Positions 27,897-55,833 of a stretch of 64,000 bases of DNA are shown here, in pieces; position 1 is the first letter of the stretch, and every line of letters begins with the position of its first letter. Both the position numbers and the translations under genes were made by a program. Source of the stretch: Escherichia coli (lineage in GTDB: Bacteria > Pseudomonadota > Gammaproteobacteria > Enterobacterales > Enterobacteriaceae); NCBI RefSeq assembly GCF_002854065.1, contig NZ_CP024147.1; one strand, written 5' to 3'. The notes under the pieces are model-generated. The model searched no databases and had not been told where the DNA came from. It saw only the letters and a list, made by a program, of their open reading frames with translations.

Positions 27897-28314
27897 TCAA
27901 AGAAACCATTCAGGCTTAACGCCAAATCGGGCTGAAAGTGCCTTAATGTGGGATATCGTCAGGGATCGTTGTCCAGACAAGATCTGGCTGACCAGGGATT
28001 TAGAACCGATTTCGTTCTTCAAATCCGCATAGTCAGATTATGTTGATCAATCAGCGTACGAAGTAACGCTACGCCAACCGGCATTGCCGCAACGGCTTTG
28101 TCGAACTCTGCAAACTTTTCGTTGTTGTTTTCATATTCTGCAATGCGGCTCGCCAGAAAGTCGATAAGTGGATTGGTGTCATCTTCTTCAATCAATATTC
28201 GACCAGTTCCAGTGCTTCACGATAATCATCTTCTGAGTCACTGCCTCCCAGAAAGGGGACTGCATTGACCAGTTCTCTTGTTGCTTTAACAGCGCGTGCA
28301 GCATTAGCAGTCAT
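27897..28314 (-). pseudogene. HigA-family (HTH_XRE) antitoxin-like gene disrupted by two 1-bp deletions
   Basis: Three consecutive frames encode MTANAARAVKATRELVNAVPFLGGSDSEDDYREALELVEY / IEEDDTNPLIDFLASRIAEYENNNEKFAEFDKAVAAMPVGVALLRTLIDQHNLTM / DLKNEIGSKSLVSQILSGQRSLTISHIKALSARFGVKPEWFL, together a ~139-aa HigA-like protein. Confidence 0.7.
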
Positions 28315-28549
28315 TCTTTGTTCTCTCTGTAGTATCGTATCAGACGCCCACTTTTCTAAAATGCCAGGTTTGCTCGGCATCATAAGGCATGGTCAGGAGA
28401 GGTTTCAGCGCCCGCTTTTGCGCATATTCGCTGTCACTCATTGGCAGATATTCGGTAAAGCTGGTGGCCTGTGCAGGCAGCACTAAGCTCAATAAAAAAG
28501 CGCACATCCCTGTTCTGATGTTCAATTCCCTGAATTCCCTAATGAAGAA

Positions 28550-46199: not shown

Positions 46200-46856
46200 A
46201 TGCCATCTACACGCTATCAAAAAATCAATGCCCATCACTATCGCCATATATGGGTCGTTGGTGATATTCATGGTGAATATCAGTTATTACAATCCCGCTT
46301 ACATCAACTCTCTTTTTTCCCCGAAACCGACTTACTTATTTCTGTCGGCGATAATATTGATCGTGGGCCGGAGAGTCTTGACGTCCTGCGCCTGCTAAAC
46401 CAGCCCTGGTTTATCTCCGTTAAAGGCAACCACGAAGCAATGGCGCTGGATGCGTTCGCGACCGGCGATGGCAATATGTGGCTTGCCAGCGGTGGTGACT
46501 GGTTCTTTGAGTTAAATGATATGGAACAAAAAGAAGCTATAGGTCTATTGCTGAAATTTCATCAACTTCCACATATTATTGAAATTACCAACGACATTAT
46601 AAAATATGTCATCGCACATGCGGATTATCCGGGCAATGAATATCTCTTTGGCGGACAAATAGCGGAGAGCGAATTACTTTGGCCTGTTGATCGTGTGCAG
46701 AAATCTCTTAATGGCGAGTTACAACAAATAAACGGCGCTGATTATTTTATATTTGGACATATGATGCTTGATAACATTCAGACGTTCGCTAACCAGATTT
46801 ATATTGATACCGGATCGCCGAAAAGCGGGCGGCTGTCATTTTATAAAATAAAGTAG
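46200..46856 (+). CDS. pphB: Serine/threonine protein phosphatase 2 (calcineurin-like)
   Basis: 218-aa ORF with GDIHG and GNHE metallophosphatase motifs. Confidence 0.93.
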   Translation: MPSTRYQKINAHHYRHIWVVGDIHGEYQLLQSRLHQLSFFPETDLLISVGDNIDRGPESLDVLRLLNQPWFISVKGNHEAMALDAFATGDGNMWLASGGDWFFELNDMEQKEAIGLLLKFHQLPHIIEITNDIIKYVIAHADYPGNEYLFGGQIAESELLWPVDRVQKSLNGELQQINGADYFIFGHMMLDNIQTFANQIYIDTGSPKSGRLSFYKIK

Positions 46857-46906: not shown

Positions 46907-47704
46907 TTATTCATTTTTCGCTACCAGCAAAGAGAGATCCTGCTTCGCCAGCGCGCGACTGGCACTCTCCGGCAAACCGTCGTCTGTAATAATCTGATCA
47001 AACTCGCTTAATGGTAACGCCAGCCATGTCGCCACCTGACCATATTTCGTCGCATCACAGACCAAAACTCGCTGGCGGCTGGCACTGGCAATCGCCCGTT
47101 TCACCGTGACTTTATCTTCCGCTGGCGTAGAAATCCCCCGCAAACTCCATGACGATGCAGAAATAAAAGCCTGATCAATCATCAGGCTGCGCAGCATGGT
47201 CGCAGCGGCTTCCCCGACACAGGAACGGTTTTCCCGACACACTGCACCGCCAGTGTGAATAATTGTGCAATTACTGTTGTCGAGCAAGTAGTCCGCAATA
47301 ACGAAATCGTTTGTGACCACAGTCAGTGACTCCATGTGAATCAGATGCTGTGCTATCGCTAACGTGGTCGTTCCCGCATCCAGATAGATACAACTTCCCG
47401 GCTGAACAAGACTTGCCGCCAGCTTGCCAATAGCCGCTTTTTGCGTCATTGCCAGCGCAGTTTTTACCTGATGAGAAGGTTCATGCGCCACGCGTCCCGG
47501 AGACTGGACGCCTCCGGATACCAGCACAACGGCTCCCTGCTGCTCCAGTTTTTGTAAATCCCGACGAATGGTCATATGTGACACATTCATTCTGTCCGTT
47601 AGTTCAGCAATACTGACAATGCCTTTTTCAGCTACCATCTCAAGGATGATTTGGCGACGCTCTACGGGTATCAACTTTTGCTCCTTCCTTTGTCCTGCTG
47701 ACAT
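46907..47704 (-). CDS. ygbI: DeoR-family transcriptional regulator
   Basis: ORF with N-terminal HTH (MTIRRDLQKLEQQG) and DeoR sugar-binding domain; start codon not resolved. Confidence 0.85.
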   Translation of the reverse strand: MSAGQRKEQKLIPVERRQIILEMVAEKGIVSIAELTDRMNVSHMTIRRDLQKLEQQGAVVLVSGGVQSPGRVAHEPSHQVKTALAMTQKAAIGKLAASLVQPGSCIYLDAGTTTLAIAQHLIHMESLTVVTNDFVIADYLLDNSNCTIIHTGGAVCRENRSCVGEAAATMLRSLMIDQAFISASSWSLRGISTPAEDKVTVKRAIASASRQRVLVCDATKYGQVATWLALPLSEFDQIITDDGLPESASRALAKQDLSLLVAKNE

Positions 47705-47869
47705 TCTACGCTATTTGCCTGCGAAACGTGCGCGGCGCAACTAACGCTTAGTTCACATAAAATAACACACAATGTTAATTTTTGTGAATCAGCTCACCAT
47801 ATCGTTATCTTCCAGCGCTTATATTCACAATATCAAACAAAATATCACTTAAATTAACAATGAGAGCAG

Positions 47870-48777
47870 ATGAAAACGGGATCTAGTTTCATGTCGGTAT
47901 CGTTGGCTTAGGGTCAATGGGAATGGGAGCAGCACTGTCATGTGTCCGCGCAGGTCTTTCTACCTGGGGCGCAGACCTGAACAGCAATGCCTGCGCTACG
48001 TTGAAAGAGGCAGGTGCTTGCGGGGTTTCTGATAACGCCGCGACGTTTGCCGAAAAACTGGACGCTCTGCTGGTGCTGGTGGTCAATGCGGCCCAGGTTA
48101 AACAGGTGCTGTTTGGTGAAACAGGCGTTGCACAACATCTGAAACCCGGTACGGCAGTAATGGTTTCTTCCACTATCGCTAGTGCTGATGCGCAAGAAAT
48201 TGCTACCGCTCTGGCTGGATTCGATCTGGAAATGCTGGATGCGCCAGTTTCTGGTGGTGCAGTAAAAGCCGCTAACGGTGAAATGACTGTCATGGCCTCC
48301 GGTAGCGATATTGCCTTTGAACGACTGGCACCCGTGCTGGAAGCCGTTGCCGGAAAAGTTTATCGCATAGGTGCAGAACCGGGACTAGGTTCGACCGTAA
48401 AAATTATTCACCAGTTGTTAGCGGGCGTACATATTGCTGCCGGAGCCGAAGCGATGGCACTTGCAGCCCGTGCGGGGATCCCGCTGGATGTGATGTATGA
48501 CGTCGTGACCAATGCCGCCGGAAATTCCTGGATGTTCGAAAACCGGATGCGTCATGTGGTGGATGGCGATTACACCCCGCATTCAGCCGTCGATATTTTT
48601 GTTAAGGATCTTGGTCTGGTTGCCGATACAGCCAAAGCCCTGCACTTCCCGCTGCCATTGGCCTCAACAGCATTGAATATGTTCACCAGCGCCAGTAACG
48701 CGGGTTACGGGAAAGAAGACGATAGCGCAGTTATCAAGATTTTCTCTGGCATCACTCTACCGGGAGCGAAATCATGA
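47870..48777 (+). pseudogene. ygbJ: 3-hydroxyisobutyrate dehydrogenase-family oxidoreductase with a -1 frameshift near codon 6
   Basis: ATG at 47870 gives MKTGSSFMSVSLA* in one frame; the Rossmann motif VGIVGLGSMGMG is encoded in another frame directly upstream of the track ORF (47917), preceded by in-frame TAG at 47884-47886. Confidence 0.75.
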
Positions 48778-50036
48778 TCAAGATTGGCGTTATCGCCGAT
48801 GATTTTACCGGCGCGACGGATATCGCCAGTTTTCTGGTGGAAAACGGTCTACCAACGGTACAAATTAACGGTGTTCCAACAGGTAAAATGCCGGAAGCAA
48901 TCGACGCACTGGTGATCAGCCTGAAAACGCGTTCCTGTCCGGTGGTTGAAGCCACACAGCAATCGCTGGCGGCTCTGAGCTGGTTGCAACAGCAAGGTTG
49001 CAAACAGATCTATTTCAAATACTGCTCTACTTTCGACAGTACGGCTAAAGGTAATATCGGCCCGGTTACCGATGCATTAATGGATGCTCTCGACACGCCG
49101 TTTACGGTCTTCTCTCCGGCCCTGCCGGTCAACGGACGTACGGTTTATCAGGGGTATTTGTTCGTAATGAATCAACTGCTGGCCGAATCCGGGATGCGCC
49201 ATCACCCGGTAAATCCCATGACCGACAGCTATCTTCCCCGTCTGGTTGAAGCGCAATCCACAGGGCGCTGCGGCGTCGTTTCGGCACATGTTTTCGAACA
49301 AGGTGTGGATGCCGTTCGTCAAGAGCTGGCTCGCTTACAGCAAGAGGGCTACCGCTACGCGGTGCTTGATGCGCTGACCGAACACCATCTGGAAATTCAG
49401 GGAGAAGCCTTGCGCGATGCCCCACTGGTAACGGGCGGTTCTGGTCTGGCGATTGGCCTGGCCCGGCAGTGGGCGCAAGAAAACGGTAACCAGGCTCGCA
49501 AAGCAGGGCATCCGCTCGCTGGGCGCGGCGTAGTGCTCTCCGGTTCATGCTCTCAAATGACCAACCGCCAGGTGGCACATTACCGTCAAATTGCACCAGC
49601 CCGTGAAGTTGATGTGGCACGCTGCCTCTCAATTGAAACTCTGGCCGCTTATGCACACGAACTGGCAGAGTGGGTTCTGGGCCAGGAAAGTGTACTTGCT
49701 CCACTGGTTTTTGCCACCGCCAGCACTGACGCATTGGCAGCAATTCAACAGCAATACGGTGCACAAAAAGCCAGTCAGGCAGTAGAAACACTGTTTTCTC
49801 AACTAGCGGCGCGGTTAGCAGCGGAAGGCGTGACACGCTTTATTGTCGCAGGCGGTGAGACCTCCGGCGTAGTCACACAGAGCCTGGGAATAAAAGGGTT
49901 TCATATTGGCCCAACCATTTCCCCCGGCGTGCCGTGGGTAAACGCACTGGATAAGCCTGTCTCACTCGCCCTTAAATCTGGCAACTTCGGTGATGAAGCC
50001 TTTTTTTCACGAGCCCAAAGAGAGTTTTTATCATGA
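48774..50036 (+). CDS. ygbK: Four-carbon acid sugar kinase family protein
   Basis: 420-aa ORF in operon position, overlaps ygbJ by 4 bp. Confidence 0.85.
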   Translation: MIKIGVIADDFTGATDIASFLVENGLPTVQINGVPTGKMPEAIDALVISLKTRSCPVVEATQQSLAALSWLQQQGCKQIYFKYCSTFDSTAKGNIGPVTDALMDALDTPFTVFSPALPVNGRTVYQGYLFVMNQLLAESGMRHHPVNPMTDSYLPRLVEAQSTGRCGVVSAHVFEQGVDAVRQELARLQQEGYRYAVLDALTEHHLEIQGEALRDAPLVTGGSGLAIGLARQWAQENGNQARKAGHPLAGRGVVLSGSCSQMTNRQVAHYRQIAPAREVDVARCLSIETLAAYAHELAEWVLGQESVLAPLVFATASTDALAAIQQQYGAQKASQAVETLFSQLAARLAAEGVTRFIVAGGETSGVVTQSLGIKGFHIGPTISPGVPWVNALDKPVSLALKSGNFGDEAFFSRAQREFLS

Positions 50037-50671
50037 GCGATTTCGCAAAAGTAGAGCAGTCTTTGCGAGAGGAGATGACGCGGATTGCCAGTTCATTCTT
50101 TCAGCGCGGCTATGCAACCGGTTCGGCTGGCAATCTGTCGCTGCTTTTACCTGACGGGAATTTACTGGCGACACCGACAGGTTCATGCCTGGGCAATCTC
50201 GAGCCGCAGCGGCTTTCCAAAGTCGCCGCGGATGGCGAATGGTTAAGTGGTGACAAACCCTCGAAAGAGGTGCTCTTTCATCTGGCGCTGTATCGCAACA
50301 ATCCGCGCTGTAAAGCGGTGGTGCATTTGCACAGCACATGGTCGACGGCGCTTTCCTGCCTGCAAGGGCTGGACAGCAGCAACGTTATTCGTCCGTTCAC
50401 ACCATACGTGGTGATGCGGATGGGAAATGTCCCGCTGGTGCCTTATTACCGACCGGGCGATAAACGCATCGCACAGGATCTGGCGGAACTGGCAGCAGAC
50501 AATCAGGCTTTTTTACTGGCAAATCATGGCCCAGTGGTTTGCGGTGAAAGCCTGCAAGAAGCCGCCAACAATATGGAAGAGCTGGAGGAAACGGCAAAGC
50601 TGATTTTTATTCTCGGTGACCGCCCGATCCGTTATCTGACCGCAGGTGAAATTGCGGAATTAAGGAATTAA
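50033..50671 (+). CDS. ygbL: Class II aldolase/adducin-family protein
   Basis: 212-aa ORF with class II aldolase fold signature (HxH region). Confidence 0.85.
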
Positions 50672-50675
50672 TGCA

Positions 50676-51452
50676 ATGCCTCGTTTTGCAGCTAATTTAT
50701 CCATGATGTTCACCGAAGTGCCTTTTATTGAACGCTTCGCCGCAGCGCGAAAAGCCGGGTTCGATGCTGTGGAATTTCTGTTTCCCTATAACTACTCCAC
50801 CCTGCAAATCCAAAAGCAACTGGAGCAAAACCATCTGACACTGGCGCTGTTCAATACCGCTCCCGGAGATATTAATGCGGGGGAATGGGGATTATCCGCC
50901 CTTCCCGGACGTGAGCACGAAGCACACGCAGACATCGACCTGGCACTGGAATATGCATTGGCGCTCAATTGTGAACAAGTCCATGTAATGGCAGGCGTCG
51001 TGCCCGCTGCCGAAGATGCTGAACGGTACCGGGCAGTATTTATCGATAATCTCCGCTACGCTGCCGACCGCTTTGCGCCACACGGCAAGCGAATATTAGT
51101 TGAAGCACTCAGCCCCGGCATTAAGCCTCATTATCTCTTCTCCAGCCAGTATCAGGCACTGGCTATTGTTGAAGAAGTTGCGCGAGATAACGTGTTTATT
51201 CAACTAGATACTTTTCATGCGCAAAAAGTAGATGGCAACCTGACGCATTTAATCCGCGACTACGCCGGGAAATATGCGCACGTACAAATTGCCGGACTAC
51301 CTGATCGACATGAACCGGACGATGGAGAAATCAACTATCCGTGGCTGTTCCGCCTGTTCGATGAGGTGGGATATCAGGGCTGGATCGGTTGTGAATATAA
51401 ACCTCGTGGCCTCACCGAAGAAGGACTTGGCTGGTTTGACGCCTGGCGCTAA
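50676..51452 (+). CDS. ygbM: Xylose isomerase-like TIM-barrel protein (hydroxypyruvate isomerase family)
   Basis: 258-aa [24 protein letters not shown]. Confidence 0.85.
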
Positions 51453-51540: not shown

Positions 51541-52836
51541 ATGTCCACAATTACATTGTTATGCATTGCGTTAACTGGCGTAATCATGCTGTTGCTGCTG
51601 GTCATCAAGGCAAAGGTACAACCATTCGTTGCTCTGCTCCTCGTCAGCCTGTTAGTCGCACTTGCGGCGGGTATACCGGCGGGCGAAGTGGGTAAAGTGA
51701 TGATCGCCGGGATGGGCGGTGTGCTTGGTTCCGTCACTATTATTATTGGTCTGGGCGCTATGCTGGGGCGTATGATCGAACACTCTGGTGGTGCAGAGTC
51801 ACTGGCTAATTATTTCAGTCGCAAGTTAGGTGACAAACGAACTATCGCTGCGCTGACTCTGGCAGCGTTCTTCCTCGGTATTCCCGTCTTCTTTGATGTC
51901 GGCTTTATTATTCTTGCGCCAATCATTTACGGTTTTGCCAAGGTTGCCAAAATATCGCCACTCAAATTTGGCCTGCCTGTCGCTGGGATCATGCTAACTG
52001 TACATGTGGCGGTACCGCCGCATCCAGGCCCTGTCGCCGCAGCAGGGTTACTCCACGCAGACATCGGCTGGCTAACCATCATCGGTATTGCGATTTCTAT
52101 TCCCGTAGGGATTGTTGGCTACTTTGCAGCGAAAATAATCAATAAGCGCCAATATGCGATGTCGGTGGAAGTACTGGAACAGATGCAACTGGCTCCGGCC
52201 AGTGAGGAAGGCGCGACAAAATTAAGCGATAAAATAAATCCACCGGGCGTCGCGCTGGTCACCTCGCTAATTGTTATTCCTATCGCGATTATCATGGCGG
52301 GTACGGTTTCCGCAACACTGATGCCGCCTTCGCATCCCCTGCTTGGTACGCTACAGCTGATCGGCTCACCAATGGTAGCTCTAATGATTGCGCTGGTGCT
52401 GGCATTCTGGTTATTGGCTTTACGTCGCGGCTGGAGCTTACAACACACCAGCGACATTATGGGCTCAGCGCTTCCTACTGCGGCGGTAGTGATTTTGGTT
52501 ACTGGTGCTGGAGGGGTATTTGGCAAAGTGCTGGTGGAATCGGGCGTCGGCAAAGCCCTTGCCAACATGTTACAAATGATTGACCTGCCTCTGTTACCAG
52601 CCGCATTTATTATTTCACTGGCGCTGCGTGCATCGCAGGGGTCAGCAACCGTAGCAATACTGACAACCGGCGGGTTACTCTCAGAAGCGGTGATGGGATT
52701 GAATCCGATTCAGTGCGTATTGGTGACGCTGGCAGCCTGCTTTGGTGGGCTTGGTGCGTCACATATTAATGACTCAGGGTTCTGGATTGTGACCAAATAT
52801 CTGGGATTGTCGGTAGCAGACGGTCTGAAAACCTAG
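51541..52836 (+). CDS. ygbN: GntP-family permease, apparently truncated by an in-frame TAG
   Basis: 431-aa polytopic ORF; the 22 codons after the TAG (TVLTTILGFTGFLITWCVWAVI, ending TGA at 52903-52905) are in frame and hydrophobic. Confidence 0.8.
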   Translation: MSTITLLCIALTGVIMLLLLVIKAKVQPFVALLLVSLLVALAAGIPAGEVGKVMIAGMGGVLGSVTIIIGLGAMLGRMIEHSGGAESLANYFSRKLGDKRTIAALTLAAFFLGIPVFFDVGFIILAPIIYGFAKVAKISPLKFGLPVAGIMLTVHVAVPPHPGPVAAAGLLHADIGWLTIIGIAISIPVGIVGYFAAKIINKRQYAMSVEVLEQMQLAPASEEGATKLSDKINPPGVALVTSLIVIPIAIIMAGTVSATLMPPSHPLLGTLQLIGSPMVALMIALVLAFWLLALRRGWSLQHTSDIMGSALPTAAVVILVTGAGGVFGKVLVESGVGKALANMLQMIDLPLLPAAFIISLALRASQGSATVAILTTGGLLSEAVMGLNPIQCVLVTLAACFGGLGASHINDSGFWIVTKYLGLSVADGLKT

Positions 52837-52912
52837 ACAGTGTTAACGACCATTCTCGGTTTTACCGGATTCTTAATTACCTGGTGCGTATGGGCGGTAA
52901 TTTGACCTTAAT

Positions 52913-52943: not shown

Positions 52944-53180
52944 TTAGCGCTTATCTGCCGCCAGCAGCGGCGGAATGCTCGGCACCATTGGCGCGTCATC
53001 AATATCTTTCTGCGTCATGCGGAACTCTTCGGGATAATGTTCGCGGCTGGTACGGCGCAGCGGTTCGGTATCGCGCCAGGTATAAAGGCAATGCTGGCAC
53101 TGATATACCGTCCAGACATCTTTCACCGGCGATTTCGCCATCACTTCAATCTGTTCATCGGCACAACGTGGACAAATCAT
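52944..53180 (-). CDS. Small subunit of a UbiD-type aromatic acid decarboxylase (YclD/KpdD-like)
   Basis: 78-aa ORF MICPRCADEQIEVMAKSPVKDVWTVYQCQHC with CxxC...CxxC zinc-ribbon-like cysteines, immediately after the UbiD-like gene. Confidence 0.75.
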   Translation of the reverse strand: MICPRCADEQIEVMAKSPVKDVWTVYQCQHCLYTWRDTEPLRRTSREHYPEEFRMTQKDIDDAPMVPSIPPLLAADKR

Positions 53181-53190
53181 CTTCTTCTCC

Positions 53191-54618
53191 TTATTTACGT
53201 GCAGCCAGCATAGCGGTCAGTTTTTCAGCCCAGGCTTTGGTTTCCGGCAAATCCACCACCGGCTGGCTGTAGTGACCACGGTTGTCCGGGGCGACAGGCG
53301 TGGTGGCGTCGATAATCAGCTTGTCGGTGATCCCCGCCGGGCTTGAGCCAGGGTCGAGTTCCAGCACGGACATATTCGGCAACTGCACCAAATCCCCTGC
53401 CGGGTTCACTTTCGAGGAGAGCGCCCACATCACCTGCGGCAGGTTGAACGGATCAACGTCTTCATCGACCATAATCACCATCTTCACGTAGCCCAGACCG
53501 TGCGGCGTGGTCATCGCGCGCAGGCCCACCGCGCGGGCAAAGCCGCCGTAGCGTTTTTTGGTGGAGATAATCGCCAGCAGGCCGTGGGTGTACATGGCGT
53601 TTACCGCCTGCACTTCCGGGAACTCGGCTTTCAGTTGTTGATATAGCGGTACGCAGGTGGCTGGCCCCATCAGGTAGTCGATTTCGGTCCACGGCATGCC
53701 GAGGTACAGCGATTCGAAAATCGGCCTGGTGCGGTAAGAGACTTTATCGATGCGCACCACGGTCATGTTACGCCCGCCGGAGTAGTGTCCGGTAAACTCA
53801 CCGAACGGCCCTTCGATTTCGCGTTTACGGCTTTCGATGACCCCTTCGAGGATCGCTTCTGAACCCCACGGCACATCAAAACCGGTCAGCGGGGCGGTGG
53901 CGATCGGGTACGAGCTTTCACGCAGCGCGCCTGCCATTTCATACTCAGACTGATCGTATTTCAGCGGCGTGGCCCCCATCAGCGTGATGATCGGATCGTT
54001 ACCGAGCGTGATCGCAATCGGCAGATCTTCACCGCGCTCTTCTGCTTTATGCAGATGCAGGGCGATATCGTGCATCGGCACCGGTTGCAGGCCGAGCTTA
54101 CGCTTGCCCTTCACTTCCATGCGGTAGATGCCGACGTTCTGCTTGCCGAAGTTATCCGGGTCGAGCGGATCGCGGGAAACCACGCACGCTTTGTCGAGAT
54201 AGAAACCGCCATCACCGTCGTTTAAACGAAACAGCGGCAGGATATCGAACAGATTAATCTCGTCACCATCGACGGTGTTCTGCGCCCAGGCTGGATTGGC
54301 GCGGCGCTCCGGGGCAATCGGGAAGTTATCCCAGCGGCGGATAAACTCATCAATCTGTTTTTTAACCGGGGTGTTTGGCGGCAGGCCCAAGGAAATCGCG
54401 TGGTTCTGCCAGGAACCGATGGTATTCATCGCCACGCGGGCATCGGTAAAACCGCGAATATTATCAAACCACAGCGCCGGTGCACCATCGCCGATACGCC
54501 CGGTGGCGTTGGCAGCGGCAGCCAGATCCGGTTCCGCGTTCACCTCTTCGCTGATTTTCAGTAACTGGCCGTGGTCATCAAGCGCCTGTAAAAAGCTGCG
54601 TAAATCATCAAATGCCAT
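53191..54618 (-). CDS. UbiD-family (prenylated-FMN dependent) decarboxylase
   Basis: 475-aa ORF MAFDDLRSFLQALDDHGQLLKISEEVNAEPDLAAAANA typical of UbiD/phenolic acid decarboxylase subunit C. Confidence 0.85.
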   Translation of the reverse strand: MAFDDLRSFLQALDDHGQLLKISEEVNAEPDLAAAANATGRIGDGAPALWFDNIRGFTDARVAMNTIGSWQNHAISLGLPPNTPVKKQIDEFIRRWDNFPIAPERRANPAWAQNTVDGDEINLFDILPLFRLNDGDGGFYLDKACVVSRDPLDPDNFGKQNVGIYRMEVKGKRKLGLQPVPMHDIALHLHKAEERGEDLPIAITLGNDPIITLMGATPLKYDQSEYEMAGALRESSYPIATAPLTGFDVPWGSEAILEGVIESRKREIEGPFGEFTGHYSGGRNMTVVRIDKVSYRTRPIFESLYLGMPWTEIDYLMGPATCVPLYQQLKAEFPEVQAVNAMYTHGLLAIISTKKRYGGFARAVGLRAMTTPHGLGYVKMVIMVDEDVDPFNLPQVMWALSSKVNPAGDLVQLPNMSVLELDPGSSPAGITDKLIIDATTPVAPDNRGHYSQPVVDLPETKAWAEKLTAMLAARK

Positions 54619-55211
54619 TATTCATTCTCCTGAGAAAAATTCCGGGCCTGCGGCAATCCTTGCCAGCGCCTGGCGTAGGGATGTTCAAGGCCAAATTGAT
54701 CCAGCACGCGGGCTACCACGTGGTGGACAATGTCATCTACCGTTTCGGGATGGTTATAAAAGGCAGGCATCGGCGGCACCATCGCCACGCCCATGCGTGA
54801 AAGTGCGAGCATATTTTCGAGATGGATGGTGTTAAGCGGCATTTCACGCGGCACCAGTACCAGTTTGCGGCCTTCTTTGAGCACGACGTCCGCCGCGCGC
54901 CCTACCAGGCCATCGGCGTAACCAGCGCGGATACCGGCGAGCGTTTTCATACTGCACGGAATAACGATCATGCCGTCGGTACGAAAGGAACCTGAGGAGA
55001 TGGTCGCCGCCTGATCCGCCGGGTTATGGCTGAAGTCAGCGAGGGCAGCAACATCGCGGGCGCTGTAAGGCGTTTCCAGTTCAATGGTGGTTTTCGCCCA
55101 CTTCGACATCACCAGATGAGTCTCGATATTCGGCATCTCCTGCAGCGCTTGCAGTAATGCCACACCAAGAGGCGCACCGGTAGCCCCTGTCATCCCGACG
55201 ATCAGTTTCAT
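54618..55211 (-). CDS. UbiX/Pad1-family flavin prenyltransferase
   Basis: 197-aa ORF MKLIVGMTGATGAPLGVALLQAL with flavoprotein motif; stop overlaps the UbiD-like start. Confidence 0.85.
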   Translation of the reverse strand: MKLIVGMTGATGAPLGVALLQALQEMPNIETHLVMSKWAKTTIELETPYSARDVAALADFSHNPADQAATISSGSFRTDGMIVIPCSMKTLAGIRAGYADGLVGRAADVVLKEGRKLVLVPREMPLNTIHLENMLALSRMGVAMVPPMPAFYNHPETVDDIVHHVVARVLDQFGLEHPYARRWQGLPQARNFSQENE

Positions 55212-55324
55212 TGCTTACTCTCTTAATTGTTCGTATACGAACGTTATTATTAAAATACGCCTCTGTTCTCATTGCGGCAAGCACTGAAAAGTAACAACAT
55301 CCCCTTCGTCACTGAAAAACCGCT

Positions 55325-55765
55325 ATGATAGCGGCAGATAGTTTGCCCGGAGTTTACATGGCGTTACGAAATAAAGCGTTCCATCAGTTACGACAGCTTT
55401 TTCAGCAGCACACATCTCGCTGGCAGCACGAGTTACCTGACCTGACCAAACCACAGTATGCGGTGATGCGTGCCATTGCTGATAAGCCTGGTATCGAACA
55501 GGTGGCACTGATAGAAGCAGCAGTCAGCACCAAAGCAACGCTGGCAGAAATGTTGGCAAGAATGGAAAATCGTGGCTTAGTCAGACGTGAACATGACGCC
55601 GCTGATAAGCGGCGACGCTTTGTCTGGCTGACTGCCGAAGGAGAAAAGATACTTGCTGCGGCGATACCGATTGGTGACAGCGTGGATGAGGAATTTTTGG
55701 GGCGTTTGAGTGCAGAAGAGCAGGAGCTGTTTATGCAGCTGGTGCGCAAGATGATGAACACATAG
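55325..55765 (+). CDS. MarR/SlyA-family transcriptional regulator, divergent from the decarboxylase operon
   Basis: 146-aa ORF with winged-helix region TKPQYAVMRAIADKPGIEQVALIEAA; true start may be the internal Met at 55358. Confidence 0.8.
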   Translation: MIAADSLPGVYMALRNKAFHQLRQLFQQHTSRWQHELPDLTKPQYAVMRAIADKPGIEQVALIEAAVSTKATLAEMLARMENRGLVRREHDAADKRRRFVWLTAEGEKILAAAIPIGDSVDEEFLGRLSAEEQELFMQLVRKMMNT

Positions 55766-55833
55766 GATGCAAATTGCCGGGTAGGACGCTGACGTGTCTT
55801 ATCCAGGCGACAAAAACACATGCTTCCCAAACA

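Follow-up and report, generated by a model that had tools for sequence, protein, structure and literature searches.

A one-base deletion at codon 6 of ltnD (ygbJ) in a single Escherichia coli assembly: recent pseudogene or consensus error?

Between mutS and rpoS, the stretch of Escherichia coli DNA analysed here (64,000 nucleotides, hereafter "the window") carries a dehydrogenase gene whose native start codon and enzyme-coding frame do not agree. The locus thus raises the question of whether a gene has been disabled by a genuine mutation or whether a base has been lost from the assembled sequence and, if the mutation is genuine, what would remain of the enzyme and of its operon.

Identity of the gene and position of the missing base

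The native start codon is the ATG at 47870–47872, which is followed by AAA ACG GGA TCT AGT TTC ATG TCG GTA TCG TTG GCT and by a TAG at 47909–47911; upstream of ATG AAA ACG GGA TCT AGT TTC, the region reads ...AACAATGAGAGCAG. As the original prediction had claimed, the frame opened by this ATG ends after 13 codons, in the sequence as well as in translation, and this remnant (47870–47911, plus strand) translates to MKTGSSFMSVSLA*. The enzyme-coding frame (hereafter, the body frame), which contains FHVGIVGLGSMGMG..., spans the region from a TAG at 47884–47886 to the stop codon at 48775–48777; in translation, this TAG is followed by FHVGIVGLGSMGMGAALSC..., which is open to 48777. The first ATG, GTG or TTG in the body frame is the ATG at 47917 (the next is the ATG at 47923), and it opens a 286-amino-acid ORF (47917–48777, plus strand), the longest ltnD ORF that remains, which corresponds to residues 17–302 of K-12 YgbJ according to the ORF list, profile searches and alignment. 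Translation also places the Rossmann motif where it had been predicted, in the other frame upstream of ATG 47917 and cut off by the TAG at 47884–47886.

By sequence, the gene is identified as ltnD (ygbJ), encoding L-threonate dehydrogenase. Against the NCBIfam equivalog NF043037 for L-threonate dehydrogenase (cut-off, 350), the 302-amino-acid protein obtained by restoring one base (the repaired protein) reaches 473.6 bits and the 286-amino-acid ORF 454.8 bits; the two-domain architecture of the β-hydroxyacid dehydrogenases is also present, with Pfam matches to NAD_binding_2 (2.2e-39) and NAD_binding_11 (3.4e-34). The ORF is identical to residues 17–302 of K-12 YgbJ at 285 of 286 positions, and the genomic context is that of ltnD, with otnK (DUF1537 kinase), otnC (class II aldolase-like decarboxylase) and otnI alongside. 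The locus is the same as that of K-12 YgbJ/LtnD (b2736), between mutS/pphB/ygbI and rpoS, and the start codon and first five codons are identical to those of K-12, whereas the window lacks one G of codon 6 and carries Y25C. The repaired protein matches residues 4–295 of PDB 3g0o, the Salmonella Typhimurium YgbJ orthologue (E = 4.8e-149), deposited as a 3-hydroxyisobutyrate dehydrogenase and a member of the β-hydroxyacid dehydrogenase family; the match takes in the N-terminal TGxxFHVGIVGLGSMGMGAA of the repaired protein, whereas in the window as written residues 1–16 are out of frame with the remainder. A single-sequence AlphaFold2 model of the repaired protein was unusable (mean pLDDT, 35.3) and was left out of the evidence.

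The check proposed with the original prediction, a pairwise alignment to K-12 ygbJ, was run and revealed one 1-bp gap. Relative to both K-12 MG1655 and the strain CUWW06, exactly one base is absent, namely the G that forms the first base of codon 6 (GAG), between 47884 and 47885 on the plus strand and 1 nt after a GATC at 47880–47883; the sequence GGATCTGAG in the two references is GGATCTAG in the window. The alignments thereby pin the lesion to a single position within the interval in which one missing base had been expected (47884–47890). The deletion changes TCT-GAG to TC-TAG and so makes the TAG at 47884–47886 (plus strand), which closes the body frame upstream. Repair gives MKTGSEFHVGIVGLGSMG and a protein of 302 amino acids, the length of K-12 YgbJ, and both references have an intact gene of 909 nt (302 amino acids). 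As in a pseudogene, the indel is not a multiple of three, and it represents a 1-bp gap relative to K-12, CUWW06 and all other relatives. The missing G is the sole difference from CUWW06 within the 5 kb around ltnD, and thus the pattern is not one of chance.

The dinucleotide-binding fingerprint GxGxxG (G13-L-G15-S-M-G18; 47905–47922, plus strand, by translation) is split by ATG 47917, which encodes M17. A product starting at M17 is without strand β1 (HVGIVG) and without G13 and G15, two of the three fingerprint glycines, which bears out the predicted truncated product lacking part of the motif. In the Pfam NAD_binding_2 profile, the repaired protein aligns from position 2 onwards, whereas the 286-amino-acid ORF aligns only from position 10, and the complete β1-GxGxxG-αA element is not in frame with a start codon, G13 and G15 lying upstream of the only body-frame start. 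The interpretation of the ltnD lesion that was first proposed is supported by these results.

The ltnD operon and its other lesions

In PMC12540250, with reference to Zhang et al. (2016), LtnD is described as converting L-threonate to 2-oxo-tetronate, from which OtnI, OtnK and OtnC then produce DHAP; LtnD is thus the NAD-dependent dehydrogenase of the entry step of L-threonate catabolism. The pathway deals with a breakdown product of ascorbate. The gene order is ltnD-otnK-otnC-otnI-ygbN with a divergent ygbI, flanked by mutS/pphB and rpoS. The DeoR-type repressor gene of the operon, ygbI (46907–47674, minus strand), is intact, as judged from its ORF and from the ygbI annotation at the matching position in CUWW06, and, according to PMC8464067, the region between ygbI and ygbJ is bound by YgbI, which represses the ygbJK promoter. 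A promoter scan of this intergenic region picked up a single consensus match, located on the minus (ygbI) strand, which is as many as chance alone would produce. Just upstream of ygbI, in the region that corresponds to about 46200–46856 of the window, pphB is interrupted by IS1B in the related strain 100416 (L014, 18109–19542), a further lesion close to the operon.

The otnK gene (ygbK; 48774–50036, plus strand) encodes a 3-oxo-tetronate kinase of 420 amino acids, and its start overlaps the ltnD stop codon (ATGA); the feature that comes next in the operon listing occupies 50033–50671 (plus strand). The C5 run at 49917–49921 of the window is one base shorter (CCCC) in ygbK of K-12 MG1655 (L105), and because of this 1-bp deletion the K-12 YgbK is 388 amino acids long and separated by a 91-nt gap from ygbL, whereas OtnK of the window is 420 amino acids long and overlaps otnC. 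The position of otnI (ygbM; 50676–51452, plus strand), encoding a 2-oxo-tetronate isomerase with an AP_endonuc_2 fold, was transferred from the gene calls of relatives. In RefSeq, the ygbM genes of CUWW06, 100416 and TUM13936 bear the product name "HPr family phosphocarrier protein"; the ygbM product hits Pfam AP_endonuc_2 and is annotated as a putative 2-oxo-tetronate isomerase in K-12, and the RefSeq name looks like a naming error of the annotation pipeline.

The last gene of the operon, ygbN (51541–52905, plus strand), encodes a GntP-family transporter and, by translation, is broken by a TAG at 52834–52836, codon 432 of 454. The annotations of both CUWW06 and 100416 give ygbN an internal stop, and of 4,598 complete genomes these two alone are identical to the window over the stretch containing it. 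In public assemblies, 257 blocks contain the 431-amino-acid YgbN product, with ltnD intact in all of the matches listed; the nonsense codon is therefore an established clone-level allele.

A Shine-Dalgarno site precedes ATG 47870 (47859–47864, plus strand), as had been anticipated, but it is a weakened one: alignment to K-12 shows AATGAG, with T at 47861, in place of the usual AAGGAG that K-12 has, and its pairing with the anti-SD sequence is predicted to yield –2.7 kcal/mol, vs. –8.5 kcal/mol for AAGGAG. The same change also creates an ATG at 47860, the 8-codon frame of which stops at the TAG at 47884. The T allele, a minority variant, is common to CUWW06 and several sister contigs; over 47800–47883, 28 of 4,505 complete genomes match the window exactly, with ltnD annotated as intact in all of the matches listed.

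The 286-amino-acid ltnD ORF arises elsewhere through four other independent lesions within the first 16 codons, each a different mutation: GGA to TGA at codon 4 (L004), a T insertion at codon 5 (L005), a deletion of roughly 20 bp (L006) and TCA to TAA at codon 16 (L007). The outcome is the same as in the window, with ATG 47917 called as the start, whereas none of these lesions is the G deletion found here. Contig breaks at ltnD codons 2–3 form a further set: in at least six draft assemblies (L008–L013) and in seven similar places, contigs start at codon 2–3 (47874–47876 of the window), which suggests that a repeated element, probably an IS, has inserted at the start of the gene in some lineage. 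The ltnD operon is dispensable and often damaged, and is already impaired in the lineage of the window; the ltnD frameshift is a known kind of event in a well-characterised accessory gene.

Occurrence among relatives and origin of the deletion

No carrier of the deletion was found among the 4,587 complete RefSeq E. coli genomes that have the locus, in which the best match (221 of 222) amounts to the gap itself; the ltnD region is missing altogether from 839 of 5,426 complete genomes. Likewise, the deleted sequence was present in none of the metagenome contigs searched, vs. 51 contigs with the intact sequence used as a control pattern, and when all fetched loci were searched for the two patterns, GGATCTAG occurred in the window alone and GGATCTGAG in every relative. 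The possibility that orthologues in related strains share this exact sequence and initiate at ATG 47917 is thereby excluded, since no carrier appeared in any of the three sets (complete genomes, fetched relatives and metagenome contigs).

The nearest complete genome is that of E. coli CUWW06 (NZ_CP182139.1), with 11 mismatches and 2 single-base gaps over the whole 64 kb, and closer relatives were located through rare protein variants of the window. Contigs with the decD variant A52E (L016 and L017) are 1–2 SNPs from the window over 14.2 kb, and they have the G and a 302-amino-acid LtnD. Contigs with the GutQ variant R292H (L019 and L020) match the window at 100% identity for 21 kb and 12.5 kb, in stretches outside ltnD, and an 81-kb sister contig of GCA_035821435.1 shows 100% identity over 5180–26145. 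Exact-protein look-ups with the 286-amino-acid ORF, decD-E52, GutQ-H292, YgbN-431 and OtnK recovered only intact or differently damaged ltnD genes. Thus, among all genomes examined, the deletion is, as far as their sequences indicate, private to one strain or assembly.

We consider the missing G to be, with a probability of roughly 0.55, a genuine and very recent one-base deletion that makes ltnD a strain-private pseudogene, an ordinary loss-of-function allele. The consensus is not generally indel-prone, since none of the 216 homopolymer runs of at least 5 nt (51 of at least 6 nt and 12 of at least 7 nt) differs in length from its counterpart in CUWW06, and neither of the two indels relative to that genome lies in a run of three or more; in addition, constraint on the ltnD operon is visibly relaxed. 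Against a real event stands the restriction of the allele to one assembly, with the G present in sisters separated from it by only 1–2 SNPs over 14.2 kb. Across the 35 kb that are readable in close sisters, moreover, the window has no private SNP, and the private indel is its sole difference. These same facts feed the somewhat less probable, though substantial, alternative that the G was lost in sequencing or consensus calling and that the strain really has an intact 302-amino-acid ltnD like its relatives: the deletion is confined to a single assembly in every set searched, the window differs by the indel alone from sisters that are otherwise 100% identical over 21 kb or 1–2 SNPs distant over 14 kb, and the source genome lies outside the RefSeq complete-genome set that was searched. 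A second isolated single-G deletion, at 28031 and absent from the three relatives readable there (CUWW06, 100416 and L097), also favours an error, but it affects a gene that was dead beforehand, and in such pseudogenes real indels pile up freely. The context of the Dam site GATC is prone to nanopore errors, and the ltnD deletion lies 1 nt past a GATC, a distance within which only 5.5% of the window falls; nanopore errors linked to methylation are, on the other hand, mostly substitutions, and neither deletion is in a homopolymer. A mutator background was considered as well and rejected for the window, since its mutS has a single change, which is synonymous.

It is very improbable that the allele is real and yet not null, an active enzyme being made by a –1 slip or by re-initiation. 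A –1 slip of tRNA-Phe in the P site, from UUC (47888–47890) to UUU (47887–47889), would give a 302-amino-acid LtnD with E6S, and the UUU and UUC codons of the two frames do overlap, but there is no slippery heptamer of the form X XXY YYZ, the downstream RNA folds no better than shuffled sequences (z = +0.91) and selection cannot have shaped a recoding site out of a frame break that only one genome has. Programmed frameshifting was rejected on these grounds, with the frame break absent from all relatives. Alternatively, ribosomes might stop at the TAG at 47909–47911 and re-initiate at ATG 47917, which begins 5 nt after it and is preceded by AGGG, to yield a truncated protein that keeps some activity; its SD-like pairing, at –3.7 kcal/mol, is close to the background level of ATGs throughout the window (median, –2.45), and the truncated product is without β1 and the two fingerprint glycines. 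More improbable still is the specific combination of a real deletion with expression through a –1 tRNA-Phe slip on G-UUU-C (47887–47890), which would supply full-length E6S LtnD of 302 amino acids, or its milder version, in which the operon decays in stages. Such a staged decay, as a sequence of events, is possible: the ygbN nonsense codon would have come before the G-to-T change in the SD site and the ltnD frameshift last, after loss of the transporter, an order that rests on three events and has no statistical support.

Predicted consequences and neighbouring observations

If the deletion is genuine, ribosomes starting from the native ATG at 47870 would read 13 codons and halt at the TAG at 47909–47911. 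Since the 286-amino-acid product of re-initiation lacks β1, G13 and G15, it should neither bind NAD nor fold properly, judging from what is generally known of Rossmann-fold β-hydroxyacid dehydrogenases. As the ltnD stop overlaps the otnK start, reduced translation of ltnD would probably also lower the expression of otnK, through translational coupling, and of the genes downstream. This lineage would tolerate the loss of ltnD since the operon, an accessory one in E. coli, had already been impaired in it by the ygbN nonsense codon and the weakened ltnD ribosome-binding site. The isolate would then be without the first enzyme of L-threonate catabolism, its ltnD would have to be annotated as a frameshifted pseudogene and the deletion could act as a marker for the isolate; if the deletion is an artefact, it is a base to correct in the assembly. 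In either case the lesion carries little weight beyond annotation and raises no new biological question.

The second deletion of the window lies in a gene for a HigA-like HTH antitoxin (27897–28383), situated between ascB and hycI and encoding 139 amino acids when intact. This gene is already frameshifted in CUWW06 and 100416, and the window adds the single-G deletion at 28031/28032; no record was found for the 58-amino-acid product, and a look-up with the 99-amino-acid form recovered relatives that were all more distant. Some other strains (L096, L099 and L102) have a gene for the partner toxin HigB, which is not present in the window.

Between ygbN and rpoS, at approximately 52944–55770, the window contains three genes for a non-oxidative hydroxyarylic acid decarboxylase (B, C and D) and a MarR-type regulator gene, whereas in K-12 rpoS directly follows ygbN. 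The mutS-rpoS interval is described as a mosaic region of E. coli in PMC4209514, and the presence of the decarboxylase genes is an instance of this known mosaicism. The A52E variant of subunit D (decD) carried by the window is rare and was found in only 9 contigs.
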